6,437 bases of DNA from a virus (Duplodnaviria > Heunggongvirae > Uroviricota > Caudoviricetes), in IMG/VR virus record IMGVR_UViG_2541047435_000013; one strand, given 5' to 3'. Position 1 is the first letter of the stretch. Each line of letters begins with the position of its first letter. A program made the position numbers. Below, one piece after another: positions 6,001 to 6,437 of this stretch.

Positions 6001-6437
6001 GCTCTTTGTAGGTTATGGCGTTATCGCGGTAATGATTCAGCCCCAGACTAAGCGCACCACAGGCTACCAGCAGGACAATAATCACCACACACAGAACACG
6101 GTTCATCTCTCTTTCACCCCACCAGTCCCGATAACGTCAGGACTCGCCAGGCGGTGGAAAAGAAAATGGCAACCAGCATGACTAAAAATGAAATGCCGAC
6201 GATTACACAGAGGATCTTCGCCAGCGTTATGAGTTTATCCGATATCATTAGCCACCACTCCATCAATCCGCCTTTGTTATTTTCCCTTTGCCTGTATCAG
6301 CCAGGACAAAATCAATCAGCAGATTCGCTTCGTTTATCAATGTGCGGATTTTTGATACATGCGCGGATTTAACCTGTTTCCACTCATTCAGCCCGGTAGC
6401 AAACACACTGGCAATGTTTTTATCCCGTTTCATGTCA

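Follow-up and report, generated by a model that had tools for sequence, protein, structure and literature searches.

The open reading frame (ORF) running off the end of the window (i.e., the whole 6,437-nt stretch of Caudoviricetes DNA analyzed here) corresponds to the final 57 codons of ant (d_ant), the gene for a 189-aa protein of 933W-type Stx phages, and not to an endolysin gene. Overall, we estimate a probability of about 85% for the full explanation, namely that this ORF is the tail of an ant gene in a variable slot of the lysis cassette, which would encode a cytoplasmic regulator produced late in infection and probably controlled by a leader RNA.

Identity of the edge ORF

On the minus strand, positions 6263..6437 hold 57 sense codons, a stop (TGA at 6265..6263), and one extra base, with no upstream stop and the frame open to the window edge, in line with the preliminary description, which had given at least 56 aa. 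For context, we used the annotated O104:H4 chromosome (hereafter L001) and Stx2 converting phage I (L002, taxonomy Traversvirus tv933W). The alignment to L001 is without mismatch (window 6437 = L001 3501; window 6263 = L001 3675), and in this 100%-identical record the frame continues for another 395 nt, up to the ATG at L001 3106, a continuity beyond 6437 that is drawn from identical records and not from the window's own contig. The full gene (L001 3106..3675; WP_001056885.1/BAB88006.1) appears under the names Ant, ant, and “d_ant”, as well as under the label “phage antirepressor N-terminal domain-containing protein”, and the window encodes residues Asp133..Asp189 of its 189-aa product. Within this C-terminal part, residues D137, S142, F144, G147, L148, W151, K152, H158, and L165 are invariant across 28 homologs from about ten genera. 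The edge ORF recurs as an annotated CDS, identical in sequence, in hundreds of records from phages and E. coli, and is therefore a real coding sequence and no chance ORF.

The whole window is 99.9–100% identical to 933W-type Stx2 phages and to EHEC/O104:H4 prophages, and its last 838 nt show 100% identity with many Stx2-converting phages and with prophages of EHEC O157:H7 and O104:H4. The 933W-type phages PA2 and VT2phi_272 match positions 357..6437 at 99.9% identity (94% coverage). These closest phage records match only 357..6437; over positions 1–356, where the portal gene ends and further sequence follows, they differ from the window, so that a mosaic boundary lies there. The features of the window and of the adjoining region of L001 are as follows.

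Window 6263..6437, minus strand: 3′ end of ant/d_ant, codons 133–189 plus TGA (identical annotated CDS, continuous frame, Pfam, PHROG 524)
Window 6114..6263, minus strand: 49-aa ORF with a single transmembrane (TM) segment, MEWWLMISDKLITLAKILCVIVGISFLVMLVAIFFSTAWRVLTLSGLVG (RefSeq CDS WP_000455406.1; PHROG 4906, E 1.4e-33, unknown function); a 49-aa hypothetical ORF at L001 3675..3824
Window 5642..6106, minus strand: Rz i-spanin, 154 aa (PF03245 Phage_lysis, E 1.6e-49, and annotation), the downstream limit of the inserted cargo; L001 3832..4296, with Rz1, then bor
Window 5701..5886, minus strand: Rz1 o-spanin lipoprotein, 61 aa, MRELKMKLFALTLPLVTAACGS..., embedded in the Rz +1 frame (annotated BAB88009.1)
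Window 5317..5610, plus strand: bor
Window, beyond bor: small-terminase-like gene, large terminase gene, and portal gene
L001 2298..2831: R lysozyme, 177 aa (PF00959)
L001, S holin: P21-type, class II (PF04971)

Along the minus strand, the order is S, R, a 275-nt non-coding gap, ant, the 49-aa TM ORF, Rz/Rz1, bor, and the terminase and portal genes, with the part from S to bor annotated in this order in L001 and L002. The identical records therefore bear out the preliminary description in its proposal of an extra, antirepressor-like gene between R and Rz, as well as in the displacement of the endolysin gene, with 1000 nt separating the end of R from the start of Rz (L001 2831 vs 3832). Its term “non-canonical” stands relative to lambda, P22, and phage 21, but not for 933W-type Stx phages, in which this arrangement is standard. 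The ant stop and the ATG of the 49-aa ORF overlap by one base (TGATG). A near-identical 43-aa relative of this small ORF is encoded by phage PhiR12_4, in which ant is absent, and the small ORF also occurs in divergent cassettes. It can therefore be found apart from ant, and encodes a small membrane protein in its own right, next to the spanin gene.

Two other readings of the edge ORF were weighed and rejected. The only point in favor of its being the tail of the endolysin gene R, in a canonical S-R-Rz cassette, is its place directly before the small ORF and Rz. However, muralytic domains (lysozyme, transglycosylase, amidase, peptidase) were absent from both the full Ant protein and the window fragment in Pfam searches, the full-length ORF matching two other families (see below) and no lysozyme or transglycosylase; a separate, annotated R gene lies upstream of ant, and the records all annotate the edge gene as an antirepressor. 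An endolysin is thus excluded for practical purposes, as the preliminary description had anticipated from the lack of resemblance to known endolysin C-termini. That description had also kept a short independent protein as an alternative. This would be a 56-aa product starting at the ATG at 6433..6431, which is how the ORF listing of the window presents it. A 69-aa family matching Ant residues 121–189 (PHROG 16011) and short database entries (53–95 aa) with an ORF11CD3 domain only would fit such a protein, but the in-frame codon 5′ of this ATG is GAC and not a stop, and the frame extends 133 more codons in identical records, where the ATG is the internal Met134 of a 189-codon frame. In addition, no Shine-Dalgarno sequence precedes it (GCGCTGACATG), the ORF11CD3 domain crosses the window edge, and most of the short entries are labeled partial or come from short contigs, some being split copies (e.g., AU6Stx1), whereas intact homologs measure 187–190 aa. 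Mainly on account of the open frame and of the domain that spans the edge, we consider an independent 56-aa protein highly improbable.

Ant belongs to a conserved two-domain family

In the full protein, Pfam detected P22_AR_N (PF10547) at residues 5–113 (E 8.5e-45, 152 bits for a cut-off of 30.7) and, beside it, ORF11CD3 (PF10549) at residues 122–164 (28.0 bits for a cut-off of 25). The window fragment alone reached 17.8 bits for ORF11CD3, below the cut-off of 25 because the domain is cut, and besides this sub-threshold hit matched PHROG 16011 and PHROG 524 (“anti-repressor Ant”) and nothing else. The match of PHROG 524 to the complete Ant is strong (E 1.5e-112), although confined to profile positions 7–210 of 317. 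Neither Ant nor the 49-aa ORF matched any NCBIfam family or any PADLOC anti-phage defense profile, and Ant has neither a transmembrane segment nor a signal peptide.

A database search returned 2363 Ant homologs at E ≤ 1e-5 (a search with the C-terminal 69 aa gave mostly partial entries, and a scan of viral contigs almost only near-identical E. coli phages). Among the best 120 of these 2363 homologs, nearly all are 187–190 aa long with both domains present, and the best homologs come from Escherichia, Salmonella, Photorhabdus, Xenorhabdus, Serratia, Proteus, Providencia, Sodalis, Hamiltonella, and Arsenophonus. The alignment of 28 homologs displays invariant residues in both halves of the protein. 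Proteins with P22_AR_N plus ORF11CD3 thus form a complete family conserved across Enterobacterales, and Ant is not a truncated P22 Ant. The 300-aa P22 Ant is 48% identical to the Stx-phage Ant over ~127 residues, confined to P22 residues 10–136, and no similarity between the two was found past residue 126 of the Stx-phage protein. In contrast to the Stx-phage protein, which has ORF11CD3 in its place, P22 Ant carries P22_AR_C (PF10548) at residues 200–272, and nothing in it corresponds to the window-encoded part of the Stx-phage protein.

An AlphaFold2 model of Ant (mean pLDDT 72, i.e., moderate confidence) has an alpha/beta N-terminal domain followed by C-terminal helices at residues 118–143 and 148–179 and a disordered stretch over the last 15 residues. 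The window-encoded part would include the end of the first of these helices, the second helix, and the disordered tail, and the ORF11CD3 module is predicted to be a two-helix hairpin. A Foldseek search of this model against the PDB gave nothing significant (best E 0.1), and phmmer against PDB sequences returned one spurious match to a TPR design only.

Broken copies of the gene were also observed. PHROG 14366 covers Ant residues 1–107 and PHROG 16011 residues 121–189, and phage AU6Stx1 (H117) matches Ant in two pieces; these separate PHROGs and the two-piece match indicate that in some genomes ant is split or frameshifted and annotated as two proteins. In an Arsenophonus endosymbiont (L025 2917-3528), the ant homolog appears split into three short ORFs, which suggests a pseudogene.

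The R-Rz junction is a variable cargo slot

A search of the R-to-Rz span against phage records revealed different contents between otherwise related cassettes.

Perceval and Stx2_KH16-043: nothing between R and Rz; R overlaps or abuts Rz (canonical)
Stx2_EH2201: one 72-aa ORF (L004 1176-1394) with a hydrophobic C-terminal stretch, uncharacterized
PhiR12_4: a 60-aa ORF (L005 1291-1473) with a hydrophobic C-terminal stretch, uncharacterized, plus the 43-aa ORF; no ant

Cassettes without ant are thus complete, as in Perceval and Stx2_KH16-043, and the endolysin–spanin junction is a variable cargo slot. Homology to ant-less relatives stops at L001 2917 and restarts at 3693 or 3829, and from these breakpoints the ant-specific segment (leader plus ORF) measures ~775 nt. 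The G+C content of ant (46.5%) and of the gap (45.6%) deviates from that of R (52.8%) and Rz (53.3%). The segment accordingly combines two hallmarks of a moron, i.e., presence or absence between conserved flanks in close relatives and a deviating base composition. A terminator-like hairpin is located upstream (L001 2939-2961) and not downstream of ant, and no sigma-70-like promoter was detected within L001 2000-4700, gap included.

Distant ant homologs occupy the same kind of place in unrelated phages: that of Serratia is found between a lysozyme and a DUF2570 spanin gene, that of Hamiltonella (in an APSE-like prophage) after a lysozyme gene and before a KilA-N gene and Rz, that of Photorhabdus directly after Rz, and that of E. 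coli O141:H4 after an M15-peptidase endolysin gene. Despite these differing flanking genes, conservation of the R-ant gap extends from E. coli to Serratia, Hamiltonella, and Photorhabdus.

A conserved pseudoknotted RNA precedes ant

The gap encodes a structured RNA, which lies outside of the window. RNAalifold applied to 20 leader sequences found helices H1, H2, and H3, with 16 of 24 pairs compensatory. Because MAFFT alignments of the leader shift bulges by 1–2 columns, RNAalifold missed the helices Pa, Pb, and PK1, and these were resolved by anchor-based duplex tests and a covariance model. In the duplex tests (15 sequences, 7 lineages), 5′ and 3′ windows of the same sequence (cognate) were compared to windows taken from sequences of different lineages (non-cognate). 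The elements of the leader RNA are listed below, with sequences as in E. coli and duplex energies in kcal/mol.

RNA core: ~117 nt, L001 2971-3088, ~350–470 nt beyond window edge 6437 and directly upstream of ant
H2: GCGCTT/AAGCGT
Pa: CCAAAGA/TCTTTGG; cognate −8.2, non-cognate −3.6
Pb: ATGAGCCCTG/CAGGGTTCAT; cognate −14.6, non-cognate −10.3
H3: GGATAACCGGC/GCTGGTTATTCC; cognate −15.8, non-cognate −8.2
PK1: H2 loop paired with the nucleotides that link H3 to the 3′ strand of Pb; cognate −10.5, non-cognate −7.6

With Pa crossing both Pb and H3, and PK1 also crossing Pb, the leader fold contains two pseudoknots. The same helices (Pb, Pa, H3, H2, and PK1) were recovered by an unbiased diagonal scan of a MAFFT alignment. 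In this unfitted alignment, 91.5% of cells pair, compared to 79.8% when shuffled and 36–46% for slid partners, both sides are changed in 20 of 38 pairs (a number reached by 0 of 500 shuffles), and Pa is 98.8% paired. A covariance model built from H2, Pb, and H3 only identified 25 instances in ~477 kb, every one in the orientation of the gene that follows it, including Xenorhabdus copies that were outside the seed. This model gave no instance in the window, in ant-less cassettes, upstream of P22 ant, or, except in Thorsellia, in loci with homologs of the N-terminal domain only. When these 25 instances are aligned, the paired fraction of cells is 92.9% (73.5% after shuffling), compensatory changes are seen in 31 of 40 pairs, and the covariation score is 0.578, vs 0.257 for shuffled (0/500) and at most 0.137 for slid alignments; Pa, which was not part of the covariance model, is 90.8% paired. 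The G-U pairs of the leader fit the sense strand only.

An alternative pairing involves A6 columns 37–41 with columns 125–129, i.e., GAACC (L001 ~3005-3009) with GGTTC (~3080-3084). All 12 seed sequences can form it (60/60 cells), but not together with Pa and Pb. This hints at a two-state switch, with covariation support weaker than for Pa and Pb. As the main long-range helix, this pairing was demoted in favor of Pb (GAGCC/GGYTC), which is longer and covaries more.

The conserved module opens with the terminator-like hairpin, followed by a U-run, whose stem covaries between genera (GGCACC/GGTGCC, CCTCGC/GCGGGG, and CCTTG/CAAGG); it could be a terminator, a 5′ stabilizer, or part of the leader RNA. 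At the other end, the distance from the RNA to the start codon is 16–20 nt for 21 instances. The minimum-energy fold of the E. coli leader leaves the Shine-Dalgarno sequence unpaired.

The leader RNA is not restricted to ant. Second copies precede KilA-N genes in Symbiopectobacterium and Hamiltonella and a Rha gene in Arsenophonus, all between lysozyme and Rz, and in one E. coli strain the RNA is found before an HNH-motif gene and a Rha gene, after a complete lysis cassette. Instances include L010 3869-3984, L012 3859-3980 and 4975-5090, L025 3782-3897, L028 1940-2060, and L176 2174-2285. In the Arsenophonus endosymbiont (L025), the copy before the broken ant homolog scores 90 bits, and the second copy precedes an intact Rha gene. 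Among complete E. coli genomes, 795 of 5426 (~15%) carry the leader RNA, at a median of 3 copies and often in several prophages per genome.

In these E. coli genomes, no RefSeq annotation underlies the RNA. Searches of E. coli, Xenorhabdus, and Hamiltonella leader copies against Rfam 15 (including C4, IsrK, and ribozymes) gave no match at E ≤ 1, ARAGORN found nothing tRNA- or tmRNA-like in the leader, and no description of such an RNA element was found in the literature searched. The small RNAs already known from EHEC prophages (AsxR, AgvB, and the Pas RNAs) map elsewhere, either 3′ of stx2AB or between esterase and holin genes. The leader RNA, apparently undescribed, is the only potentially new item of this analysis. 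We tentatively propose, at slightly less than even odds, that the terminator-like hairpin, the ~117-nt double-pseudoknotted RNA, and a Bro-network or HNH gene starting 16–20 nt behind it form an undescribed module recurrent in Enterobacterales lysis cassettes, either between endolysin and spanin genes or at the cassette end, with ant as one of its cargoes. In this module, the RNA would be a new cis-regulatory class setting late-phase expression. Its partner could be a ligand or a protein. Given that the RNA precedes genes for differing proteins, autoregulation seems less likely than an operator for translation or processing to which a shared factor binds.

Proposed role of Ant

In the proposed scheme, ant would be transcribed within the Q-antiterminated late operon and would yield a cytoplasmic regulator rather than a lysis enzyme. 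By analogy with P22 Ant, the most likely role of this product would be to bind and inactivate a repressor or another DNA-binding regulator late in infection, for instance in co-resident prophages, and the C-terminal helical module may serve in oligomerization or partner binding. Expression would probably be governed by the conserved pseudoknotted leader RNA that ends 16–20 nt before the start codon. A target such as the repressor of a co-resident prophage is considered because late expression would come too late for the phage's own switch. The antirepressor label is a putative one, derived from N-terminal domain similarity and from annotation: GenBank records name the gene ant, and all matching records say antirepressor. 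That Ant itself has antirepressor activity seems possible but doubtful, since P22_AR_C is missing, no experiment on the lysis-cassette ant gene was found in the literature searched, and the same slot holds KilA-N, Rha, and HNH genes.

Other functional readings appear less probable still. Ant could act in lysis itself, regulating its timing or inhibiting it through the holin, endolysin, or spanin, with no antirepressor role. A GenBank note in AP004402 reads “regulation of host cell lysis”, and homologs are found within or at the end of the lysis cassettes of unrelated phages with differing holins, endolysins (PF00959 or M15 peptidase), and spanins (Rz or DUF2570/LysC). However, the protein lacks any TM segment or signal peptide and its domains come from the Bro network of DNA-binding and regulatory proteins, the presence of KilA-N, Rha, and HNH genes in this slot, preceded by the same leader RNA, points to a place for cargo rather than to a lysis function, and the cassettes without ant are complete; we consider a lysis regulator unlikely. 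Even less likely is that ant is a decaying, functionless remnant of a P22-type Ant. While the absence of P22_AR_C and the partial coverage of PHROG 524 would fit a truncation, the 187–190-aa two-domain form, with its invariant residues in both halves, recurs across about ten genera, the C-terminal module is a recognized Pfam domain scoring above the cut-off, and the leader RNA is conserved along with its fixed spacing to the start codon.

Comparison with known systems

The position of ant between the endolysin and spanin genes is already known and published, is standard for 933W-type Stx phages, and has been present in Stx-phage annotations since about 2000. The ant genes of 933W, Phi24B, Stx2 converting phage I (ORF-81, BAB88006.1), and Shigella phage 7888 are the same gene in the same R-Rz position, with the window part 100% identical. 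Compared to the S-R-Rz/Rz1 cassettes of lambda and phage 21, the window phage has the same holin, endolysin, and spanin families in the same order, but with ~1 kb (gap, ant, and 49-aa ORF) between R and Rz. In P22, ant is part of immI under the control of Arc, Mnt, and sar, whereas the Stx-phage ant sits in the lysis cassette without arc or mnt neighbors and has a leader RNA that is absent upstream of P22 ant. Structured RNAs are also encoded directly upstream of antirepressor or Bro-type genes in P1/P7 (c4-icd-ant), P4 (CI), and Salmonella (IsrK). These operons share this RNA-before-antirepressor layout with the ant leader, but differ from it in RNA architecture, which in the leader consists of H2, Pa, Pb, H3, and two pseudoknots, and in the late lysis-cassette context of the latter.

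Previous work located d_ant behind the R gene of Phi24B, 933W, and the Sakai phage, reported it as absent from lambda, and considered its antirepressor function putative (PMC4426718), and Ant phams were found in 126 of 279 Stx phages (PMC8136144). The 20-nt, microRNA-size RNA 24B_1 was proposed to target d_ant (PMC4426718); here, its best predicted duplex in ant (L001 ~3229-3247, outside the window, −15.7 kcal/mol) was weaker than one in R (~2521, −17.2 kcal/mol), and the proposed target site thus does not stand out. A Phi24B antirepressor has been studied experimentally by Fogg et al., and is encoded upstream of qut and expressed before the late genes (PMC3064807). It shares with the lysis-cassette Ant its name, kind of phage, and antirepressor annotation, but is a different gene, resembles P22 Ant mainly in the C-terminal domain that the lysis-cassette Ant lacks, and has derepression evidence of its own (PMC3064807). 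P22_AR_N and ORF11CD3 both belong to the domain-swapping “Bro network” (PMC10111431). Relative to this network as a whole (KilA-N, Bro-N, Phage_pRha, ANT, and ORF11CD3; the Iyer-Koonin-Aravind set), Ant combines two of its modules in a conserved 187–190-aa subfamily of its own, for which no functional test of any member was found in the literature searched.

For this gene, which is probably read on the same late transcript as the Shiga toxin and lysis genes, the function implied by the name “ant” is a putative one. Should the leader RNA control the expression of late-phase regulators in Stx phages, it could be relevant to cross-talk between prophages and to the biology of toxin-encoding phages.
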